A DNA stretch of 32,000 bases. Source: Crocosphaera subtropica ATCC 51142 (GTDB taxonomy: Bacteria; Cyanobacteriota; Cyanobacteriia; Cyanobacteriales; Microcystaceae). Every line of letters begins with the position of its first letter. The stretch's first letter is position 1. The stretch is from assembly GCF_000017845.1 (NCBI RefSeq), contig NC_010546.1, positions 4,860,001 through 4,892,000 of the forward strand. The letters run 5' to 3'. The translations under genes were made by a program, and so were the position numbers. The notes beneath the pieces are model-generated. The model had not been told where the DNA came from and made no database searches. It saw only the letters and a list, made by a program, of their open reading frames with translations. Positions 9,767-20,243 of this stretch are shown here, in pieces.

Positions 9767-10417
9767 ATGGCAGATATCACAAGAGAAGAAATGCGCGATC
9801 GTCTAGGGAATATTGAACAAATTCGTGACTTATTATTTGGTAACACCATCCGAGAATACGATAAGCGTTTTCAACAGTGTGAGCAAAATATCGATAAATT
9901 AACCAGAGAATTCTCTTTATTTGAAACAGAAACCCGCGATCGCCTCGATCAACTTCAAGATTCTTTAACAACAGAAATTCGCTCAGTGGTCAATTCTTTA
10001 GAGAAAAAACTGAAATATTTGAGTATGACCACTCACGAACAAATTAACCAATTAGAAAAAGAACTTGATTCAACCGCTAAAAATAATTCTCGAAGTATTG
10101 AATCGTTGAATCAAACTATCACAGGACAAACGAACTTTTTAAGAAATGATCTGGTTCAAACAAGAGATAAATTAGAAAAATCAATGCAATCTTTACGAGA
10201 ACAGGTATTTGAAGCCATACAAAATGAATTAGTTGATCTTCAAGATAAAAAAGTTGCTCGAACTGATTTAGCTGATATTTTATTTGAACTTTGTGTCAAA
10301 ATCAAAGGGGATGAATTGGTTACAGATTTTCCCGAAAATACCGAACAGCATAGCCATACTGAATTATTTTTACCCGAACAACAAGCCAGCTTAGAATCAG
10401 AACACAATGACGAATAA
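9767..10417 (+). CDS. Coiled-coil protein of unknown function (first gene of the GTPase/c-di-GMP cluster)
   Basis: 216 aa with a GGAG 10 nt upstream of the ATG. Heptad-like, charge-rich sequence runs through most of the protein (LDQLQDSLTTEIRSVVNSLEKKLKYL..., QINQLEKELD..., RDKLEKSMQSLREQVFEAIQNELVDLQ). Confidence 0.75.
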   Translation: MADITREEMRDRLGNIEQIRDLLFGNTIREYDKRFQQCEQNIDKLTREFSLFETETRDRLDQLQDSLTTEIRSVVNSLEKKLKYLSMTTHEQINQLEKELDSTAKNNSRSIESLNQTITGQTNFLRNDLVQTRDKLEKSMQSLREQVFEAIQNELVDLQDKKVARTDLADILFELCVKIKGDELVTDFPENTEQHSHTELFLPEQQASLESEHNDE

Positions 10418-10443
10418 ATGAACATGATTGAGGATTGATAGAG

Positions 10444-10797
10444 ATGGCATTACCCGATAAAAACTCCTTTGACAATTCATCACTATCCCCTGATTCTGAT
10501 GAGAATTCTGTAAAAGCATTAGAAAATTTGTTAGGATTATTAACAGAATTAGAAATGCTAGATCAAGGAGATGAAGATGAAATAAGAGAAAATAAGATGA
10601 GTCAAAAATTAGAAGGAATTCAACCCAAAAATAGATACTCAAAATTGTCTCAATCTTCTCAAAAAGTACAGGTTCCAAGAAAAAGTAAGTATCACGAGTC
10701 TCTTGCTATAAAGATAAGTCAATTAGAGCAGAAAGTTAATCAATTAGAAAAAAAAAAGATGACCCCGAAGAAGTTATTAACCTTGTACTACCTTTAA
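10444..10797 (+). CDS. Small hypothetical protein with an acidic N-half and a basic coiled-coil C-half
   Basis: The ORF runs to TAA at 10795-10797, which overlaps the next ATG (TAATG). I prefer the ATG at 10444 (GAGG 12 nt upstream) over the TTG at 10435 in the track. An A10 tract lies at 10748-10757. Confidence 0.55.
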   Translation: MALPDKNSFDNSSLSPDSDENSVKALENLLGLLTELEMLDQGDEDEIRENKMSQKLEGIQPKNRYSKLSQSSQKVQVPRKSKYHESLAIKISQLEQKVNQLEKKKMTPKKLLTLYYL

Positions 10798-12548
10798 TGA
10801 CAGAATTGTTAGCTTCTCCTTCGATATCAGAAGAAACAATTAAGCAAGCTATTACCCCTGTTATTGATCAAATTATCAAAGAAAGATCCCAACAAGATCG
10901 CCTAAAAATGAGTCAAGCGATCGCCGATATTTTACCAACAGCCATTGCCCAAGAAATTGAAAATTCCCCTCAAGAAATAGCCAAAGCCATTGCCCCAGAA
11001 ATGGCTTTAGCCATACAAAACCAAATTCAACTGGATCGAGAGGCGATCGCCCAAACTTTAGGCCCAGAAATGGGACAAGCCATTAAACATCAAATCGAAG
11101 TAGAACGAGATGCCATGGTGGATGCACTTTATCCAGTGATTGGTAATACTATTTCTAAATATATGGTAGAACTCGCTAAATCTATTAATGATAAAGTAGA
11201 AAATGCACTTTCAATGGATGGGATTCGGCGAAAAATACAAGCCAAAATACAAGGGGTTTCTGAAGCAGAATTGATTTTACAAGAATCTATTAATTTTTCG
11301 GTTCAAGCTGTTTTATTAATCCATAAATCATCGGGTTTAATTATAAGTCAAGTCCAATCTGCATCTCAGCCAATAGAAGAAGTAGATTTATGGGCAGCAA
11401 TGTTAACTGCAATTCGTGATTTTGTTAATGATTGTGTTACGGTAGAAGGAAAAGTATCTGAGCTTCATGAAATTGAATACGATGATGCCAAAATTGTCTT
11501 AGAAGTCGCAGGGTATTGCTATTTAGCCGTTATTATAAAAGGAGAACCTTCCCAAACTTTTCTCAATCAAATTCGTCAAACATTAAGCCATATCATTCTT
11601 AAAAGCGGTCGAACCATTGAAGACTTTAATGGAGATCAATCTACCATCCCTCAATTTATTCACCCTCAACTCAAGGCATTAATTACCTTTTGTACTGACT
11701 CAAAAACCTCTAACCCTCCTATTACTTTAATTTTCATTTTCTCACTCATTATTATTAGTGTTGGGACAATTGTTTATCGTCATCAAATTACTAATTCCTG
11801 GGAAAAAGAAGTATTAAAGGCCTTAGATGCTGCGCCAGAATTATCGGTTTATCGTATTATTCCCGAAGTAAAAAGAAGGCAATTAATATTAAGAGGACGA
11901 GTCCCTAACCTGGCTTTAAAAAAACAAGCAGAAAATATCACTCATCAAGTTACCCCTCATTTAACCCTAGATAATCAAATTGTTGCAGTTAATATCCCCC
12001 CTGATGATCAAGCTATCGCAGGAGAAGTTCAACGGGTGACAGAAATTTTTAACCAAACTGAGGGAGTAGCTATTAATACGAATTATCAAGATCATAAGGT
12101 CACTATTACAGGATTCGTCCTCAATATTAGTCAAAGTAATCAACTTTCCCAAGCCTTTCAACAAATTCCAGGAATTGAGCAGGTAATTAGTACCTTTCAA
12201 ACCCAACCCTATTTAGAAACTCGTATTTATTTTGATCAAAATTCTAGTCAGTTTCAAACTGATAATATTAACCAAAAAGTTAAAACTATTGAAAAATTTT
12301 TAGCGGAACATCCTCGCATTCATCTTATAATAATAGGTCATAGTGATACAACAGGTTCAGTTGCTCAAAATGAATCACTAGCTAAGGCTAGGGCTAAAGC
12401 CGTAGAGCGAGTTTTACTGCAAAATAAGGTGGATTCTCGTCGCTTAAGGATTGCTGTGAGTCTTCAACCTCCGCCTGGTGTAACCAGCAATCAACCCTTA
12501 TGGTTAAGTCGGTGTGTGCGCTTTGAAATTTCGATTCCGCCCAATTAG
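10797..12548 (+). CDS. Bitopic envelope protein: cytoplasmic repeat region plus a Roadblock/LC7-like module, one TM helix, two BON-like domains and a C-terminal OmpA/MotB-like peptidoglycan-binding domain
   Basis: 583 aa. An approx 21-aa repeat occurs twice (AIAPEMALAIQNQIQLDREAI / TLGPEMGQAIKHQIEVERDAM). Residues approx 165-271 have a beta-alpha-beta-beta-alpha pattern (VLLIHKSSGLIISQV, DLWAAMLTAIRDFVNDC, AKIVLEVAGYCYLAVIIKG, FLNQIRQTLSHIILK). The TM helix is ITLIFIFSLIIISVGTIVY. The OmpA-like block is IYFDQNSSQF...IIIGHSDTTGSVAQNESLAKARAKAVERVLL. Confidence 0.85.
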   Translation: MTELLASPSISEETIKQAITPVIDQIIKERSQQDRLKMSQAIADILPTAIAQEIENSPQEIAKAIAPEMALAIQNQIQLDREAIAQTLGPEMGQAIKHQIEVERDAMVDALYPVIGNTISKYMVELAKSINDKVENALSMDGIRRKIQAKIQGVSEAELILQESINFSVQAVLLIHKSSGLIISQVQSASQPIEEVDLWAAMLTAIRDFVNDCVTVEGKVSELHEIEYDDAKIVLEVAGYCYLAVIIKGEPSQTFLNQIRQTLSHIILKSGRTIEDFNGDQSTIPQFIHPQLKALITFCTDSKTSNPPITLIFIFSLIIISVGTIVYRHQITNSWEKEVLKALDAAPELSVYRIIPEVKRRQLILRGRVPNLALKKQAENITHQVTPHLTLDNQIVAVNIPPDDQAIAGEVQRVTEIFNQTEGVAINTNYQDHKVTITGFVLNISQSNQLSQAFQQIPGIEQVISTFQTQPYLETRIYFDQNSSQFQTDNINQKVKTIEKFLAEHPRIHLIIIGHSDTTGSVAQNESLAKARAKAVERVLLQNKVDSRRLRIAVSLQPPPGVTSNQPLWLSRCVRFEISIPPN

Positions 12549-12570
12549 ATAAGTTAAGTATTTATAGTCT

Positions 12571-13116
12571 ATGATTAGTAAAAAAATCTGTCTGATTGGT
12601 GATTTTGGCGTAGGAAAAACTAGCTTAATTCGTCGTTTTATAGAACATCAATTTAGTGAAGAATATTTATCTACCATTGGAGTCAGCATTTCTCGTAAAT
12701 CAGTGATAGTATCCTCCTCCCATGAAAAACAAGACCCCGAAATAGTACAGTTATTAATTTGGGATATTGAAGGAAAAACAAAATTTCAAAAGATTTCTCC
12801 TAGTTACTTAAAATCTGCTCAGGGGATTATCATCGTGGCTGATTTTAGTCGTCAAGATACCATTGCTAATATCCCTTTTCATGTTGATTTAGTCCGTTCA
12901 ATCAATCCTGAAAGACTGACCCTAAGCATTGTTGTCAATAAAATTGATCTCGTTGCAGAACATTTGCCGACCCTTTTACTCCAACAGTATCAAATTCCTA
13001 ACCAGTTTCCCACCATCCCGATCTATCATACCTCTGCAAAAACAGGAGAAAATGTCGAAATCATGTTTCACCAATTAGCTCAGAGTATGATGGAAAAAAA
13101 CAACCAAAATTATTGA
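12571..13116 (+). CDS. Ras-superfamily small GTPase (Rab/Ras-like)
   Basis: G1 is GDFGVGKT and the switch I Thr lies in STIGV. G3 is WDIEGK, with Lys where Ras has Gln61. G4 is NKID and G5 is TSAK. Length is 181 aa. Confidence 0.9.
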   Translation: MISKKICLIGDFGVGKTSLIRRFIEHQFSEEYLSTIGVSISRKSVIVSSSHEKQDPEIVQLLIWDIEGKTKFQKISPSYLKSAQGIIIVADFSRQDTIANIPFHVDLVRSINPERLTLSIVVNKIDLVAEHLPTLLLQQYQIPNQFPTIPIYHTSAKTGENVEIMFHQLAQSMMEKNNQNY

Positions 13117-13213
13117 CGGATTTAAAAGTTCAATTAAAATAGCGTACATTCCCTTATTGTTGTTCCTTGACTCAAAAGATGCTGTTATTTGTTGTCTTCA
13201 TTTATTTATCTAT

Positions 13214-15142
13214 ATGGCACAAGAAAAGTCGATATCCCTCAACTCCCACTTAGTCTCTGTCGAAGCATTAATTAGTGAACATACTGAGAAACTTAATCAA
13301 GCCAAAGAACACTTACAACAACTTACCATTCACTTAGATCAATTAACCCATACTAATCTTCAACTATCAGAAGATATCTATCACTGCCAAAAGTTAGACG
13401 AAGAACTGAGACTAAATGAGCAAGCTTTACAGCTTAATCAAGAACGACTTCACAGTATTCTTGGCTCCATTGATGATGTGGTGTGGTCGATTGTTCCCCA
13501 AACTAGCCAAATTCTTTATCTTAATCATGCCACCGAGACGGTGTATGGTCGTCCCATTGCAGACTTTTTAGATAACTTAAATTTATGGCAAGAAATTATC
13601 TATGCAGACGATCAACAACGGGTTGAAGAGTCCCAACAACTTCTTTATAAAACAGGAATACAAGATATTGAATATCGCATCCTTTGGCCCAATGACGAAA
13701 TACATTGGATTAGGGTTCGGAGTCGTTTGATTAAAGATGATCAAGGAAACCCCATCCGTATCGATGGACTCACCACAGAAATCACCGAATATAAACAAAT
13801 TAAAGACCAACTACTTCATGATGCCTTGCACGATAATTTAACGGGCTTACCTAACCGAACCCTATTAATGGATCGCATTGAACAAGGGTTGAAACGGTGT
13901 CAACGGGATAAAAATAGACGGTTTGCTCTGCTGTTTTTGGATTTAGATGGATTTAAGCTCATTAATGATAGTTTAGGACATTTAACCGGGGATCAGCTAT
14001 TAATTATCCTCAGTCATCGGTTTAGTCGATGTTTGCGGGCCGAAGATACCTTATCCCGACTTGGAGGAGATGAATTCGTCATTTTGTTGGAGAATTTAAG
14101 CAATATTGATGAAGCGATCGCCATTGCTGATCGTATCCATAACATTCTCAAAGAACCGATTTTGTTACAAAACGAAGAAATTTTTATCAGTGTTAGTATT
14201 GGCATTGTTTTAGGCGGAGAACAATCCGTTTATAATAATCTCGATCAAGTGGCTGAATTGCTACGAGATGCAGATACTGCCATGTATCGAGCTAAGGCCA
14301 AAGGACCAGGAACCTCAAAAGTCTTTAAACCCTCGATGCACACCCATGTTATGAAACGGTTACAGGTGGCTAATGAGTTGCAAAGGGCCATTGAACGTCA
14401 AGAATTTATTGTTTATTATCAACCGATTATTTCCCTAGACAGCGATCGCATTGATGGGTTTGAAGCCTTAGTCCGTTGGCAACACCAAGAGAAAGGATTG
14501 ATTGCTCCTACGGATTTTATTCCCATCGCTGAAGAAACAGAAGCCATCTTAAAAATTGATCAATGGGTGTTGCGTCATGCTTGCACTCAATTAGGTCTTT
14601 GGCAACAACAATTCCCAAATCTAGGATCTTTGACCATGAGTGTTAATCTTTCTAGTAAACATTTAGCCCATCCCAGTTTAATTGAAGTATTAGATGAGAT
14701 TTTAGCCGAAACCGGGTTAGGAGGAAGCTCTTTAAAAGTAGAAATTACCGAAAGTTTTGTCATGGAACAAAGCAAAACATCCCTTGATATTCTAGAGCAA
14801 ATCAAACAGCGAAAAATTGAACTGTGTTTAGATGATTTTGGGACAGGTTATTCTTCGTTGAGTTATTTAGATTGCTTTTCTTTTAATATTTTGAAAATTG
14901 ATCGCTCTTTTATTAAACGGTTAGTCGCAGAACAAGATAGATGCGAAATTATTAAAGCGATTGTGGATTTAGCCATAACCTTAAATATGCAAGTGGTAGC
15001 GGAAGGGGTAGAAACTAATGTGCAACGGAAGAGATTAAAAGCTTTAAATTGTGGTTATGGTCAAGGTTATGGCTTTTTTCCCCCTTTAGATAGTCAAAAC
15101 ATTACCCGTCTTTTAGAGCAGCAAGATACACCCATCAACTAA
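13214..15142 (+). CDS. Coiled-coil/PAS-GGDEF-EAL c-di-GMP turnover protein
   Basis: A PAS-like region (LHSILGSIDDVVWS...IEYRILWPNDEIHWIRV) is present. An intact GGDEF motif (RLGGDEF) has an RxxD I-site 5 aa upstream (RAED). The EAL domain is intact (FEALVRWQH, DDFGTGYSSLSYL, EGVET). The first in-frame ATG is 13214, and the track start at 13157 is a TTG. Confidence 0.92.
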   Translation: MAQEKSISLNSHLVSVEALISEHTEKLNQAKEHLQQLTIHLDQLTHTNLQLSEDIYHCQKLDEELRLNEQALQLNQERLHSILGSIDDVVWSIVPQTSQILYLNHATETVYGRPIADFLDNLNLWQEIIYADDQQRVEESQQLLYKTGIQDIEYRILWPNDEIHWIRVRSRLIKDDQGNPIRIDGLTTEITEYKQIKDQLLHDALHDNLTGLPNRTLLMDRIEQGLKRCQRDKNRRFALLFLDLDGFKLINDSLGHLTGDQLLIILSHRFSRCLRAEDTLSRLGGDEFVILLENLSNIDEAIAIADRIHNILKEPILLQNEEIFISVSIGIVLGGEQSVYNNLDQVAELLRDADTAMYRAKAKGPGTSKVFKPSMHTHVMKRLQVANELQRAIERQEFIVYYQPIISLDSDRIDGFEALVRWQHQEKGLIAPTDFIPIAEETEAILKIDQWVLRHACTQLGLWQQQFPNLGSLTMSVNLSSKHLAHPSLIEVLDEILAETGLGGSSLKVEITESFVMEQSKTSLDILEQIKQRKIELCLDDFGTGYSSLSYLDCFSFNILKIDRSFIKRLVAEQDRCEIIKAIVDLAITLNMQVVAEGVETNVQRKRLKALNCGYGQGYGFFPPLDSQNITRLLEQQDTPIN

Positions 15143-16061: not shown

Positions 16062-16110
16062 GCTTGCTCCGTCCCTATGTCTGAGGGAACCTCAGACGGG
16101 GCGGTGCGCT
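16062..16110. repeat. 49-nt GC-rich hairpin mini-insertion inside the transposase gene
   Basis: The sequence is gcttgctccgtccctatgtctgagggaacctcagacggggcggtgcgct. A perfect 8-bp stem pairs gtctgagg with cctcagac around loop gaa, with an outer ccgtccc/ggggcgg stem. Deleting exactly these 49 nt joins ...PELQPAE to RLWPL... in frame. Confidence 0.75.
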
Positions 16111-16859
16111 TTCAGCTGGTTGTAATTCAGGAGAATAGGATGGTAAAAATTCTAGATGTATGCCTTCAGGAATTTTTAATGATTTACTCGTATGCCATCT
16201 CGCCCCATCCAAAACTAACAACACCTCCTTATTTTTTCCAATTTCAAAATGTTGAGCAAAATCAGCTAAAACTTGGCTAAATACTTCATGATTAACTAAT
16301 GGCATTAACCACCAATAAGTTTCTCCTGATTCTGGGTTCACGAAACCATAAAGCCAAACCCATTTATATTGCCACTTAATTTTTGCTGTTGGCACATCTG
16401 ACCAACTTACCCAGATTCTTCTATAAATTGGCTTTAATCCAATTCTATGTTCATCTTCTGTCCATAATTCTACTTTCTTCTCTGGATATTTTTCTTGTAT
16501 TTCTTTTACCCTAAAGGCGAGTTTTTTTTCCACTCTTCTTGCTCAATTAAATCGGCTTTTTGGTTTTCAGGACGGGGTATTCTTAAGCGGTATTCCATTG
16601 CTTTCAAATATTCCCAACCTCTTTGTGGCCAGACTCGGTATCCTAAAACTTCACTCATCCAATCTGCTACTTTTCTTCCATTCCATAATCCTCCATCTGG
16701 GGCTGGCCCTTGAATCACTTGTAGGAGTTGTGCTATCTGGACTTCATCTAATAATGGTTCTTTTCCTGGATTATTTTCTCTATGATCCCCTAATCCTTCA
16801 ATTCCTGAATGATTATAACGTCTGGCTAATTCTCTCACCCAGTACACTGTATATCCTGT

Positions 16860-16891
16860 GGCGGTCTCGCCCTTGGCGAGTGCGGCTGCAC
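16860..16891. repeat. 32-nt GC-rich hairpin mini-insertion inside the transposase gene
   Basis: The sequence is ggcggtctcgcccttggcgagtgcggctgcac. A 6-bp stem pairs ctcgcc with ggcgag around loop ctt. Deleting exactly these 32 nt joins ...KKTEEVA to TGYTVYWVRELA... in frame. Confidence 0.7.
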
Positions 16892-17102
16892 CGCTACTTC
16901 TTCTGTTTTTTTTCCACTAGCTAATAGCCAGATTATCTGATACTGACTTCTAGTTACTGGATTTTTTGCCTCTCGATATCTAGCTTGTAATTCAGATACA
17001 CTCAGGTGTTCGGCTATCTCAATTCTTTTTGGCATCTGGAGGGCGATCGCTTATTAACTCTACCCTCTTATTATACATTAACTTTTCAAACGGATTTCAT
17101 AT

Positions 17103-17472: not shown

Positions 17473-18357
17473 ATGCCCAACGATACTTGCCATGTTTTAT
17501 TAATAGAAGATAAATTAGAGAATATTGAGTTATTACAAGATTTATTGTCTCGCAGTGAACACAGTTCTCTAGCTAAGGGTTTAACTTTTCCCATTACTTC
17601 CGCCACAACTTTAACCGAGAGTTTAAAATCCCTAGAAGCTCAGAAATTTGATGTAATTTTACTGGATTTAGATTTACCAGATAGTCAAGGATTGGATACC
17701 TTAATAAAACTAAGAGGAAAAGCAGCAAATATTCCCATTATTGTAGAAATGGATGAACAACGTGAAGGCAAAGTTGTCGAATCTTTTCAATTGGGTGCTG
17801 ATGGTTACTTACAAATAAAAACCCTTGATAGTAATCTCTTAATTCATGAGATTCGCTTAAGTATTGAACGGCAAAAATACCGTGCTAAAATCAATAAACA
17901 GCAGGAAGAAATGCGTCAGGCGCAAGAATTTGCCGATCTCGATGATCTCATTAAAGCGAGTCGGGAAACCAGTGTAACAGCACGATTATTTGGAGCTTAT
18001 CCTCTCAAAGAGAGCTTACCCGATGTCTTTATGGAATTAACAGAAGCGTATGGTAAGTTATTAGAATTATCTTTAGAACAACGAATGTTTAAAGTAGATT
18101 ATAATATCTCTGAGCAACTACGAATCTTAGGCGATAAATTAGGCTTTCTGAAAGCGAGTCCTAGAGATGCTATTGAAATTCACACAAAAGTTTTAAAGGA
18201 AAAAAGTCAAGATGTTACTGTGGCTAAAGCCCAAGCCTATGTTGCGGAAGGAAGACTGATGATTTTAGAATTAATGGGGTATTTAGCTTCATTTTATCGT
18301 AAATACTATATCGGTCTTAGTAACATTAACCTATCGATCCGAAAAGATTATCCGTGA
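17473..18357 (+). CDS. kaiA3: Chimeric KaiA-like protein (KaiA3 type): N-terminal response-regulator receiver domain plus C-terminal KaiA-like domain
   Basis: The receiver-like N-terminus includes HVLLIEDK and DVILLDLDLPDSQGLD. The C-terminus aligns by eye with the KaiC-binding domain of S. elongatus KaiA (AIEIHTKVLKE vs VVEIHMELMDE; EGRLMILELMGYLASFYRK vs DYRLTLIDVIAHLCEMYRR). The gene lies immediately upstream of kaiB and kaiC. Confidence 0.75.
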   Translation: MPNDTCHVLLIEDKLENIELLQDLLSRSEHSSLAKGLTFPITSATTLTESLKSLEAQKFDVILLDLDLPDSQGLDTLIKLRGKAANIPIIVEMDEQREGKVVESFQLGADGYLQIKTLDSNLLIHEIRLSIERQKYRAKINKQQEEMRQAQEFADLDDLIKASRETSVTARLFGAYPLKESLPDVFMELTEAYGKLLELSLEQRMFKVDYNISEQLRILGDKLGFLKASPRDAIEIHTKVLKEKSQDVTVAKAQAYVAEGRLMILELMGYLASFYRKYYIGLSNINLSIRKDYP

Positions 18358-18362
18358 ACTTT

Positions 18363-18647
18363 ATGAATAAATATCTACTCAAGCTATATATTACAGGGAA
18401 TACTGTCAACTCTCAAAGAGCGATCGCCAATCTCTTTCGTATCTGTCACGAAGAGTTACAAGATCAATATACCGTAGAAATTATCGATGTTCTCGAACAA
18501 CCGCAACAGGCCGAACGAGAAAAAATTTTAGTCACCCCCACCCTGATTAAACAGTTACCTCCACCCCTACAACGTATCATTGGAGATATGTCTAACACCC
18601 AAAAAGTTCTCTTAGGATTAGATTTAGTTTCCCAAAATAAAAATTAA
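18363..18647 (+). CDS. kaiB: Circadian clock protein KaiB (KaiB3-like by context)
   Basis: The sequence YLLKLYITGNTVNSQRAI...IIDVLEQPQQAEREKILVTPTLIK.LPPPLQRIIGDMS...KVLLGLDL carries the KaiB signature. An alternative GTG start at 18354 overlaps the kaiA3 stop (GTGA). Confidence 0.92.
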   Translation: MNKYLLKLYITGNTVNSQRAIANLFRICHEELQDQYTVEIIDVLEQPQQAEREKILVTPTLIKQLPPPLQRIIGDMSNTQKVLLGLDLVSQNKN

Positions 18648-18728
18648 CTAAGGTTTCTTGGCAATAGGAAAAGAAACAGGCAAAATAAACAATGAACAAT
18701 TCACCCTCTATTTCCTAAAAAAACACGA

Positions 18729-20243
18729 ATGACTCCAGAAAACGAACTAGACTATATTGAGAAATTAGAAACCGCTATTCCAGGGTTTGATTTTTTGTCA
18801 GAAGGTGGCCTCCCTAAAGGACGGGCTACTTTAGTCGCTGGAACTGCTGGAAGTTCTAAAACGGTTTTTGCTTGTCAGTTTTTAGCCGAAGGAATTAAAC
18901 GAGGGGAAAACGGTGTTTTTGTCACTTTTGAAGAACCACCCAAAGCCTTACGACGAAATATGCGAGGGTTTGGCTGGAATATTGCCCAATGGGAACTGGA
19001 ACGAAAATGGGCTTTTGTCGATGCCTCTCCCCAACCCGGAGAACCGATGATGGTAACGGGAGACTACGATCTCGGTGCGTTGATCGCCCGTATCGAGTTT
19101 GCTATCCGTAAGTATAACGCTCAACGAGTATCGATGGACTCTTTAGGGGCAATTTTTAGCCATTTAAGCGATAGCGCGCAAGTGAGAAGCGATCTCTTTC
19201 GTATGGCTTCGGCGTTACGAGAATTAGGGGTCACAGCCATTATGACGGCCGAAAGAACGGAAGAATATGGGGATATTAGTCGGTTTGGGGTAGAAGAATT
19301 TGTGGCCGATAATGTTGTTATTCTACGCAATGTCTTAGCGGATGAAAAGCGTCGTCGTACCATCGAAATTTTGAAATATCGGGGCACCGATCACCAAAAA
19401 GGCGAATATCCCTTTACCATTGTTCCCCGTCGTGGGGTGGTGATTATTCCTTTATCTGCCATTGAATTAGAACAAAAATCCTCTAATATTCGGATTACCT
19501 CCGGTAGTCACGAGTTAGATAGAATGTGCGGTGGTGGGTTTTTCCGAGATTCGATTATTTTAGTGTCGGGGGCCACCGGAACCGGCAAAACGTTAATGGT
19601 AACAGAATTCATGGCGGGTGGGGTGGTTAATGACGAACGATGTTTAATTTTTGCCTTTGAAGAAAGCCGAGAACAACTATTTCGTAATGCCACCGGTTGG
19701 GGGGTAGATTTTGAAGAAATGGAAAAACAAGGAAAATTAAAAGTGGTCTGTCGTTATCCAGAAACCACAGGGTTAGAAAATCACCTAATCAATATGAAGG
19801 AAACCATCGAAACCTTTAAACCGAATCGGGTGGCAGTAGACAGTTTATCAGCGTTAGAACGGGTTTCTACTTTAAAAGGATTTCGAGAGTTTATTATTGG
19901 TTTAACGTCTTTTATTAAACAGCAAGAAATCGGCGGTTTATTTACCTCAACTACTCCGACTTTATTGGGCGGATCTTCCATTACAGAGGCGCATATTTCT
20001 ACCATTACCGATTCTATTATTTTATTGCGTTACGTCGAAATGTATGGGGAAATGCGCCGTGGTATTACGGTTTTAAAAATGCGGGGTTCGATGCACGATA
20101 AAGATATTCGAGAATTTTCCATTGATAATAAAGGAATGCACATCGGTAAACCTTTCCGCAACGTAACCGGCATTTTATCCGGTTCGCCGATGTATACCGC
20201 ACAAAACGAAGTAGAACGATTAAGTAATTTATTTGAAGAGTAA
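18729..20243 (+). CDS. kaiC: Circadian clock ATPase/autokinase KaiC (KaiC3-like)
   Basis: The RecA-like domain is duplicated. The Walker A motifs are GTAGSSKT (CI) and GATGTGKT (CII). The catalytic EE pairs lie in TFEEPP and AFEESRE. The phosphosite block is TEAHISTITDSIILL. Length is 504 aa. Confidence 0.95.
   Translation: MTPENELDYIEKLETAIPGFDFLSEGGLPKGRATLVAGTAGSSKTVFACQFLAEGIKRGENGVFVTFEEPPKALRRNMRGFGWNIAQWELERKWAFVDASPQPGEPMMVTGDYDLGALIARIEFAIRKYNAQRVSMDSLGAIFSHLSDSAQVRSDLFRMASALRELGVTAIMTAERTEEYGDISRFGVEEFVADNVVILRNVLADEKRRRTIEILKYRGTDHQKGEYPFTIVPRRGVVIIPLSAIELEQKSSNIRITSGSHELDRMCGGGFFRDSIILVSGATGTGKTLMVTEFMAGGVVNDERCLIFAFEESREQLFRNATGWGVDFEEMEKQGKLKVVCRYPETTGLENHLINMKETIETFKPNRVAVDSLSALERVSTLKGFREFIIGLTSFIKQQEIGGLFTSTTPTLLGGSSITEAHISTITDSIILLRYVEMYGEMRRGITVLKMRGSMHDKDIREFSIDNKGMHIGKPFRNVTGILSGSPMYTAQNEVERLSNLFEE

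Follow-up and report, generated by a model that had tools for sequence, protein, structure and literature searches.

Two families of prokaryotic small Ras-superfamily GTPases, MglA and Rup, were distinguished by Wuichet & Søgaard-Andersen (2014, Genome Biol Evol, PMC4316618). For Group 1 of the Rup family a neighbourhood of four genes was described, encoding a cytoplasmic coiled-coil protein (DUFY), a DUFX-TM-OmpA protein in which DUFX is a domain of unknown function and TM a transmembrane segment, the GTPase itself and a signalling output protein, for which a fusion of diguanylate cyclase and phosphodiesterase or a histidine kinase is typical (PMC4316618). The G3 glutamine is missing from Group 1 Rup proteins; it was proposed to be supplied in trans, as an element of a GTPase-activating protein (GAP), by a Gln that is invariant in the output's N-terminal region, the system was likened to the actinobacterial conservon, and Rup GTPases were stated not to be coupled to MglB homologues (PMC4316618). 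GAPs of the MglB type position the GTPase's own Gln and Arg (PMC4316618). Further members were listed from Bacteroidetes, Chloroflexi, Nitrospirae and several proteobacterial classes, and as of 2014 no Rup member had been characterised experimentally (PMC4316618). The locus analysed here lies at positions 9767–15142 of a 32 000-nucleotide stretch (NC_010546.1, 4,860,001–4,892,000, forward strand; hereafter the window, to whose numbering all unlabelled positions refer) of Crocosphaera subtropica (Cyanothece) ATCC 51142, and Table S2 of PMC4316618 contains it (cce_4705), with DUFY and the 181-aa Group 1 Rup included. As judged from sequence, the cluster represents the Group 1 Rup small-GTPase module in Crocosphaera; an initial annotation, made from the letters of the window, had presented it as a system not previously described, which was wrong because this very locus is listed there.

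Five open reading frames (ORFs), all on the plus strand and separated in order by 26 nt, a TAATG overlap, 22 nt and 97 nt, span 9767–15142 in the ORF list of the window, as had been annotated. They had been counted as five genes; by sequence comparison the true count at the locus is four, ORF2 and ORF3 being one gene in nearly all relatives examined and being separated here by a frameshift at a run of ten A (A10). The first gene (9767–10417) encodes DUFY, a 216-aa cytoplasmic coiled-coil protein (cce_4705) assigned from the ORF, synteny and Table S2 of PMC4316618, for which Pfam returned only below-threshold matches to coiled-coil families. ORF2 (10444–10797; 117 aa, cce_4706), previously taken for a small acidic/basic protein and without any Pfam family, is the detached N-terminal segment of the OmpA protein: it is colinear with the N terminus of a 705-aa orthologue from C. 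chwakensis (P0002) and carries a conserved LxxLLxLLxELE helix. ORF3 (10797–12548; 583 aa, 100% identical to cce_4707) encodes the body of this protein, the 'DUFX:OmpA' of PMC4316618, with a predicted Roadblock module, one transmembrane helix, two BON stretches and an OmpA-like domain. It is followed by the gene of a 181-aa Rup-family small GTPase (12571–13116) and by that of a 642-aa coiled-coil-PAS_3-GGDEF-EAL protein (13214–15142), a clade-specific putative output. The four components, their order and the diguanylate cyclase/phosphodiesterase type of output are those of Group 1 Rup (PMC4316618), whereas here DUFX is predicted to be a Roadblock domain, the output lacks the invariant-Gln domain and the OmpA gene is split at an A10 run that is not mentioned in PMC4316618. 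The best explanation, to which we give a probability of roughly 75%, is a four-gene Group 1 Rup module in which a wall-anchored Roadblock platform would act on Rup and Rup on the adjacent enzyme. The system is known but uncharacterised, and two incremental additions are made to it here, both of them predictions: the Roadblock fold of DUFX and a candidate recoding site.

The 181-aa protein, which had been annotated as a Ras-superfamily GTPase, matched Pfam Ras/Roc (E 2e-28), and its closest relatives in the PDB were Rab1, Sec4 and Ypt7. Its G1 (GDFGVGKT), G3 (DIEG followed by Lys, WDIEGK), G4 (NKID) and G5 (SAK) motifs are intact, which bears out that annotation. Size and motifs (181 aa, Asp in G3) lie within those by which Rup is recognized (<240 aa, Ras-like G1–G5, DxxG), and the catalytic Gln after DxxG is missing (Lys there), as the Group 1 definition requires. 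Both Group 1 neighbours, the coiled-coil DUFY and DUFX-TM-OmpA, are present, the OmpA gene in split form; on the output side a GGDEF-EAL fusion is present, and the invariant-Gln N-terminal domain of about 130 aa was detected neither in the GGDEF-EAL protein nor in the window. The MglA-type G3 motif (TVPGQ/GTPGQ, without Asp) does not occur in this GTPase, and by its motifs the protein is Rup-type (DxxG, Rab-like), not MglA-type. In 79 distinct orthologues taken from the fetched loci, the nucleotide-binding positions that were checked do not vary (79/79): these are the P-loop equivalent of Ser17 (Thr), T35, D57, G60, N, K and D in NKxD, and SA in G5. The position of Ras Gln61 is His in 61, Gln in 11, Lys in 5 (this strain included, Lys69) and Arg in 2 of them, and the position of Ras Gly12 is Phe in all but two (77/79; Phe12 in this strain). 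Ras biochemistry indicates that a bulky residue 12 without Gln61 argues against an arginine-finger GAP. Because both features are found here, a GAP of this kind is disfavoured, and residues 12 and 61 argue for a GTPase with slow intrinsic hydrolysis and an unconventional activator.

In the cytoplasmic part of the 583-aa protein the initial annotation had proposed a Roadblock/LC7-like module, and this proposal held at the level of the fold and not at that of sequence profiles. An AlphaFold2 (AF2) model of aa 1–300, computed with an alignment of 70 family members as input, gave helices to about aa 152 followed by an alpha-beta-beta-alpha-beta-beta-beta-alpha topology (a1 156–164, b1, b2, a2 196–213, b3, b4, b5, a3 253–270), with a predicted local distance difference test score (pLDDT) of roughly 75–94 in the module (aa 156–270; 11262–11606); a domain-only model (aa 150–275) had a predicted template modelling score (pTM) of 0.70. 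When the aa 1–300 model was compared with the PDB by Foldseek, a chain of the human Ragulator-Rag heteroheptamer was matched (5x6v_F; E 7e-5, target-normalised TM-score 0.62, 105 columns, root mean square deviation (rmsd) 3.4), and other leading matches were the RagA C-terminal domain, MglC, MglB, MP1/p14 and longin domains. The best match of the domain-only model was Thermus MglB (3t1r_C; E 4e-5, TMq 0.67), and this search also returned 3t12_B, LAMTOR subunits and Asgard Roadblock proteins. A Streptomyces Roadblock/LC7 domain (3kye_A) matched with rmsd 2.9 over 113 columns, and Myxococcus MglB from MglA complexes with rmsd 2.9 (6izw_C) and about 3 (6h5b_C); all 50 of the top 50 Foldseek matches were Roadblock/LC7/longin-type folds, and TM-scores were about 0.6–0.68 for MglB, Ragulator and the Streptomyces domain. 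Pfam Robl_LC7 was absent at E ≤ 1 from the 583-aa protein and from 24 family members, Pfam and NCBIfam scans of the 583-aa protein returned OmpA and BON only, and PDB sequence and profile searches, of which the profile searches were dominated by the periplasmic half since full-length rows were present in the alignments, returned OmpA/BON proteins and no Roadblock chain. The module is predicted from these models to have a Roadblock/LC7 fold and to lie outside the detectable Robl_LC7 sequence family. It is the best-conserved region of the OmpA protein in the family alignment and matched 2617 clusters at 50% identity in an exhaustive search (948 of them with E ≤ 1e-10). A Roadblock fold for DUFX, which is a prediction from structure models, goes beyond PMC4316618.

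The remainder of the partner protein agrees with its annotation as a bitopic protein with a BON-BON-OmpA periplasmic part. Ahead of the module, 4–5 tandem copies of a helical repeat with the pattern [IM]AxA[IL]xPxxxxAIxxxI occupy aa 15–129 (10839–11183), in AF2 as helices of about 22 aa; the repeat length, given before as about 21 aa, is 23 aa by BLOSUM autocorrelation (z = 8.2 at lag 23, 4.4 at lag 46). These 23-aa repeats are highly conserved across the family and matched no known repeat family. A single transmembrane helix (aa 307–327; 11715–11777) is indicated by a Kyte-Doolittle 19-residue maximum of 2.55 at aa 309, the sole segment ≥ 1.6 in any of the five proteins. The periplasmic part consists of a BON region (11802–12206), in which Pfam BON matched two stretches (E 1e-8, best at aa 336–387), and of an OmpA-like peptidoglycan-binding domain (12228–12452), in which Pfam OmpA matched aa 478–552 (E 2e-14, 53.9 bits against a cut-off of 27.2) and which also gave PDB matches to OmpA, Pal and MotB. 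The OmpA motif GHSDTTGSVAQNESLAKARAKAV (aa 514–536; GHSD...NxxLAxxRAxxV) contains the conserved Asp and Arg of GxxD...NxxLSxxRA, and at its D, N, L, R and A positions the family hardly varies. The family profile was aligned to the BON and OmpA region of Rv0899/ArfA (2l26_A, E 1e-12) and to OsmY (8rjx). From these motifs the periplasmic BON-BON-OmpA half should anchor the protein to peptidoglycan.

Comparison with the other described systems places the locus as follows. The MglA/MglB pairs of Myxococcus and Thermus resemble it in that a small Ras-superfamily GTPase stands beside a Roadblock-fold partner, to which the structural matches 3t1r_C, 3t12_B, 6izw_C and 6h5b refer; they differ in that the G3 motif of MglA is TVPGQ/GTPGQ whereas the GTPase here is Rab-like with DIEG-K, and in that MglB is a free protein of about 130–160 aa whereas the module here is fused to helical repeats, a transmembrane helix and BON-BON-OmpA and has no Robl_LC7 similarity. 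An MglA/MglB module as a class was ruled out by the G3 motif. The conservons (CvnA-D/Mfp) likewise bring together in one operon, as a signalling unit, a membrane sensor, a Roadblock protein and a small GTPase, and 3kye is structurally close; neither a CvnA-type histidine kinase (HATPase/HisKA) nor CvnC (DUF742) was found by Pfam in the five ORFs, and a conservon as a class was ruled out by these missing components. Conservon GTPases belong to the MglA family (PMC4316618), and here anchor and predicted Roadblock module stand in one polypeptide with a peptidoglycan-binding ectodomain. The analogy to MglA/MglB and the conservons drawn in the initial annotation can thus be kept for the logic of the system and not for family membership, the GTPase being Rup-type. 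Rag-Ragulator/LAMTOR and the longin-type Rab exchange factors are likewise membrane-anchored Roadblock/longin platforms for Rab/Ras-like GTPases (5x6v_F, 6b9x_B, 6ehp, 5ldd); this is a likeness of fold and logic with no sequence-level homology shown, and the anchor of Ragulator is the lipidated p18, in contrast to a transmembrane helix and the cell wall here. ArfA/OmpATb (Rv0899) and OsmY/DolP have the TM-BON-OmpA-like layout of the periplasmic half, but they are without a cytoplasmic Roadblock module or a linked GTPase. A description of a Roadblock-OmpA-GTPase fusion in cyanobacteria was not found in the literature searched, locus-tag queries included.

Relatives were present in at least 474 genomes in a scan with one genome per species, the best 80 being essentially all from cyanobacteria. 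The order coiled-coil protein, Roadblock-TM-BON-OmpA protein, GTPase was seen in essentially every locus with enough sequence (genomes and metagenome contigs), and most loci had a DUFY orthologue ahead of the OmpA gene. The triad is also found in Nostoc punctiforme (Npun_F1891 cluster) and in Anabaena 7120 (a locus written 'alr03030' in Table S2 of PMC4316618); Group 1 Rup loci outside the cyanobacteria include those of Alteromonas and Sorangium and, without OmpA, those of Flavobacteria and Chloroflexus. What follows the GTPase gene is, with few exceptions, a signalling gene of the same orientation; in many cases the two overlap by 4 nt, and the product of the signalling gene has the architecture PAS-HisKA-HATPase, PAS-GAF-adenylate/guanylate cyclase or PAS-GAF-GGDEF, or is a very large hybrid kinase. 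An N-terminal domain of about 130 aa, ending in a helix with an invariant Gln, is common to 65 of the 79 downstream proteins and is evidently the output 'N-terminal region' of PMC4316618. The consensus of this domain is EYLxxDxxxxIxExSxGVxRFAD…FPELxGxE…LYxDLY…ExTExMxxxQxLxQxxNE; it has no Pfam match, is independent of the output domain to which it is joined, and can be seen in L001 (11482–11880 of that locus) and in the first ~135 aa of the outputs of L053, L055, L068, L073, L079, L081, L035, L040, L045, L075 and L083. Loci of two other kinds were noted. In Microcoleus loci L034 (9535–10803) and L036 an RRXRR/HNH endonuclease gene directly follows the GTPase gene in place of the histidine kinase and looks like a mobile insertion; L033, labelled as a metagenome-assembled genome (MAG) of Actinomycetota, has a Microcoleus-type locus with 62% identity to the query module and a histidine kinase gene overlapping the GTPase gene by 4 nt, and is probably mis-binned cyanobacterial DNA.

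The 642-aa protein of the present locus had been annotated as a PAS-GGDEF-EAL protein with intact motifs. Pfam gave PAS_3-GGDEF-EAL, and GGDEF, the RxxD I-site (x5 before GGDEF), EAL, DDFGTG, EGVE and KID are all intact, and from this full motif set the protein is predicted to be an active GGDEF-EAL enzyme. A (coiled-coil or CBS)-PAS_3-GGDEF-EAL gene is syntenic only in L003–L007, L038 and L074 (Crocosphaera, Hydrococcus and Acaryochloridaceae-type). Of the gene-neighbourhood conservation for which a check had been proposed, the first three genes are thus conserved across cyanobacteria and the GGDEF-EAL gene in these loci only; the proposed coupling to cyclic di-GMP (c-di-GMP) stands as clade-level synteny and fails as a general rule, 65 of the 79 outputs being of another type with the shared N-terminal domain. 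By sequence comparison the c-di-GMP link is clade-conserved and not general to the Rup system. The alternative that fares best among those considered, and that we regard as quite possible while placing it somewhat below even odds, is that the GGDEF-EAL gene is an independent neighbour, the core consisting of three genes and the canonical output being lost or encoded elsewhere. It would account for the lack of the ~130-aa domain, for the 97-nt gap with TTGACG-16-TAAAAT at a place where most other cyanobacteria have a 4-nt overlap, and for the unrelated genes (NeuB, HNH, glycosyltransferase) that lie downstream at some loci. It is opposed by the orthologous GGDEF-EAL genes, which stand at the same position in three groups and diverge like the core genes (53–59% identity), by the statement that diguanylate cyclase/phosphodiesterase fusions are a typical Rup output (PMC4316618), and by the finding that no plus-strand terminator-like site lies within the cluster in a promoter/terminator scan which was at chance level overall and was unable to settle co-transcription.

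Homologues of the 583-aa protein are mostly 700–1000 aa long. The 705-aa C. chwakensis orthologue starts with the sequence of ORF2, and the ORF3 frame upstream of its own ATG reads KKKDDPEEVINLVLPL, which matches KKNDLEEVINILWPL in this orthologue. The frames of ORF2 and ORF3 meet at the A10 run (10748–10757; plus strand), the window's only homopolymer of at least 9 bases, where a −1 frame change is needed; with one A inserted there, a 701-aa ORF colinear with the relatives results. The TAATG 'overlap' goes back to an ancestral Leu-Met codon pair, which is TTA ATG in relatives with an unbroken frame. A single fused protein is encoded in almost every fetched locus with upstream sequence, the exceptions being this strain, L006, L086/L087 and L008. 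Sequencing error as the cause of the split was rejected, the independent assembly SRR26036489 being identical over 4752 nt with A10 included. Exactly A10 and the same −1 shift occur in three lineages of the Crocosphaera clade: this strain, the L006 MAG and the L086/L087 metagenome/MAG (L006 6952–7000 and L086 148–200, corresponding to 10748–10797 of the window). The three share about 78–79.5% DNA identity pairwise over 1.8 kb (about 21% divergence); both gene halves are intact as ORFs in this strain and L006, and the L086/L087 contig ends within the upstream half. The in-frame state is found with A8 in C. chwakensis and A5 in strain SU3, a sub-branch 87% identical to this strain, and because it is restricted to this one sub-branch the frameshifted state is most parsimoniously ancestral in the Crocosphaera clade.

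Between the run and the ORF3 ATG lie 13 codons in the ORF3 frame (10758–10796), DDPEEVINLVLPL, which encode the family-wide motif PxELINxLLPL and within which no ATG, GTG or TTG occurs in that frame. Over these codons and the ATG, substitutions among the three lineages fall 10/2/16 at ORF3-frame codon positions 1/2/3, a small sample of 14 codons in which the lineage pairs are not independent; read in the ORF2 frame, most of these substitutions would hit second positions. L006 has ATA where the ORF3 ATG stands. Selection thus acts in the ORF3 frame ahead of the ORF3 ATG. The pattern indicates translation of these codons in that frame, and such translation would require recoding at the A10 run. 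A run of 10 A lies in the range that causes RNA-polymerase slippage, and A_AAA_AAG is the slippery heptamer of dnaX. The run here (zero-frame GAA AAA AAA AAG) contains A_AAA_AAG in the zero frame, as does that of L086, whereas L006 has A_AAA_AAT. On the sequence evidence a fraction of messages most likely still yields the full-length protein, either because transcriptional slippage turns A10 into A11 or because ribosomes shift by −1 on A_AAA_AAG. No downstream stimulatory RNA structure was found: for the 70 nt that follow, the three lineages gave minimum free energy z-scores from −0.15 to −0.95 and had no structure in common; in contrast to dnaX, neither an upstream Shine-Dalgarno-like element nor a downstream hairpin is seen. 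Since slippage depends on run length alone, the L006 heptamer differs and there is no significant shared structure, we hypothesize that transcriptional slippage at A10 is favoured over ribosomal frameshifting. Recoding would give the junction peptide DDPEEVINLVLPLMTELLASPSISEETIK (…KKKDDPEEVINLVLPLM…), which cannot be produced by initiation at the ORF3 ATG.

That the split is instead a plain inactivating or gene-splitting mutation, leaving a pseudogene or two pieces that are translated separately, each from its own start codon, without programmed recoding, we consider unlikely, though several observations fit it: poly-A runs are indel hot spots, ORF3 owns an ATG in this strain and L086, L008 has an ordinary in-frame stop within the same linker region, no stimulatory structure was found 3′ of the run and the fused product is encoded by no assembly. 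What it leaves unexplained is the exact A10 kept in three lineages about 21% divergent with both halves open where this could be checked, the 10/2/16 pattern and the family motif in 13 codons that cannot be reached from a canonical start, and the ATA that replaces ATG in L006. The low-coverage MAG P01_G01_bin.49 (L008, 1–350) has its in-frame stop in a variable linker, another separation of N-terminal segment and body.

In the preferred reading, that of a four-gene Group 1 Rup module, the partner would be a bitopic inner-membrane protein with its repeats and Roadblock module in the cytoplasm and its BON-BON-OmpA part on peptidoglycan. Like other Roadblock domains, the module probably forms dimers; most Roadblock proteins among the structural matches are dimeric partners of small GTPases, and by analogy the wall-anchored module would serve as an immobile inner-membrane platform that binds Rup. 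The platform would control the nucleotide state or the location of Rup, for which the roles of GAP, guanine nucleotide exchange factor and anchor were all considered; a Ragulator-like or anchor role, or the use of an in-trans Gln from the output, is possible. Rup-GTP would then act on the adjacent signalling enzyme, in this clade putatively one of c-di-GMP turnover and in the majority of other cyanobacteria a histidine kinase or a nucleotide cyclase, with DUFY as a possible scaffold or second regulator.

Several points weigh against this reading. The Roadblock assignment comes from predicted structure (mean pLDDT about 76) based on alignments of cyanobacterial sequences, and the module was undetected by Pfam Robl_LC7 and by PDB sequence profiles. 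The ~130-aa domain is absent from this GGDEF-EAL protein and from the whole 32-kb window, and the TTGACG-16-TAAAAT element of the 97-nt gap before the GGDEF-EAL gene (13113–13140) is a 10/12 promoter-like match. The Roadblock-OmpA gene is interrupted, by which the system could be impaired in this strain, and the repaired 701-aa product is in no assembly. Apart from passing citations, no later work on the Rup system was found in the literature searched. Beyond the genes present, their synteny, domain folds and motifs and the earlier description of the system, all shown above, the reading includes three elements that we infer: the contact between Roadblock module and GTPase, the direction in which signals pass and what the GGDEF-EAL protein does.

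The proposed contact bears on a further alternative, in which the Roadblock module serves its envelope protein for dimerisation or sensing, and regulation of the GTPase falls to DUFY or, through a Gln given in trans, to the output protein. The module is without sequence similarity to MglB, the Gln and Arg that are used by MglB-type GAPs are missing from Rup, and the invariant Gln of the output, proposed as a GAP element in PMC4316618, is visible in the alignment of the N-terminal domain. We nonetheless hold this to be rather improbable: most characterised Roadblock/longin proteins among the Foldseek matches work together with small GTPases (MglB, Ragulator, Rag C-terminal domains, Mon1-Ccz1), and the module is the best-conserved part of its protein and is always encoded next to the GTPase. 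As for an undescribed wall-tethered GTPase/Roadblock polarity switch coupled to c-di-GMP, as first proposed for the locus, the tight linkage and the predicted Roadblock fold are real, but with system and locus already published (PMC4316618), the c-di-GMP coupling clade-specific and nothing here pointing to a role in polarity, there is very little to be said for it.

Rup GTPases are the closest bacterial relatives of eukaryotic Rab, Ras, Rho and Ran. If DUFX is a Roadblock platform, a concrete candidate regulator for Rup GTPases would be at hand, and the partnership of GTPase and Roadblock would be a shared ancestral feature, not a speciality of MglA. The system links the cell wall to histidine kinases, cyclases and c-di-GMP enzymes, and because it is widespread and makes this link from wall to signalling, a function in envelope sensing or spatial organisation is likely. 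With its conserved A10 frameshift, the locus also offers a candidate case of programmed cyanobacterial recoding. There is a broader and distinctly speculative reading, which we judge doubtful: Roadblock-GTPase pairing would be common to both prokaryotic branches (MglA-MglB and Rup-DUFX), eukaryotic regulation by membrane-anchored Roadblock/longin proteins (Ragulator, Mon1-Ccz1, TRAPP, DENN) would descend from a pre-assembled, wall-bolted bacterial module reporting to second-messenger enzymes and, separately, the Crocosphaera partner gene would be recoded at A10 to give a short and a long product.

In the rest of the window, Rfam, tRNA and tandem-repeat scans over the 32 kb returned nothing. 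On the minus strand at 16075–17035 a transposase with HTH_32/HTH_33 and DDE_3, possibly of the IS630 type, is spread over three short ORFs (66, 113 and 152 aa), the last apparently truncated, and forms a degraded or frameshift-dependent insertion sequence. At 17473–20243 the gene of a response-regulator protein whose C-terminal half is uncharacterised precedes that of a 504-aa double-domain ATPase of the KaiC family, which may be a KaiC paralogue with its own regulator. The lowest G+C of the window is found at 1001–2000 (0.30, compared with about 0.33–0.46 in the other 1-kb windows), inside a 520-aa minus-strand ORF (1146–2708).

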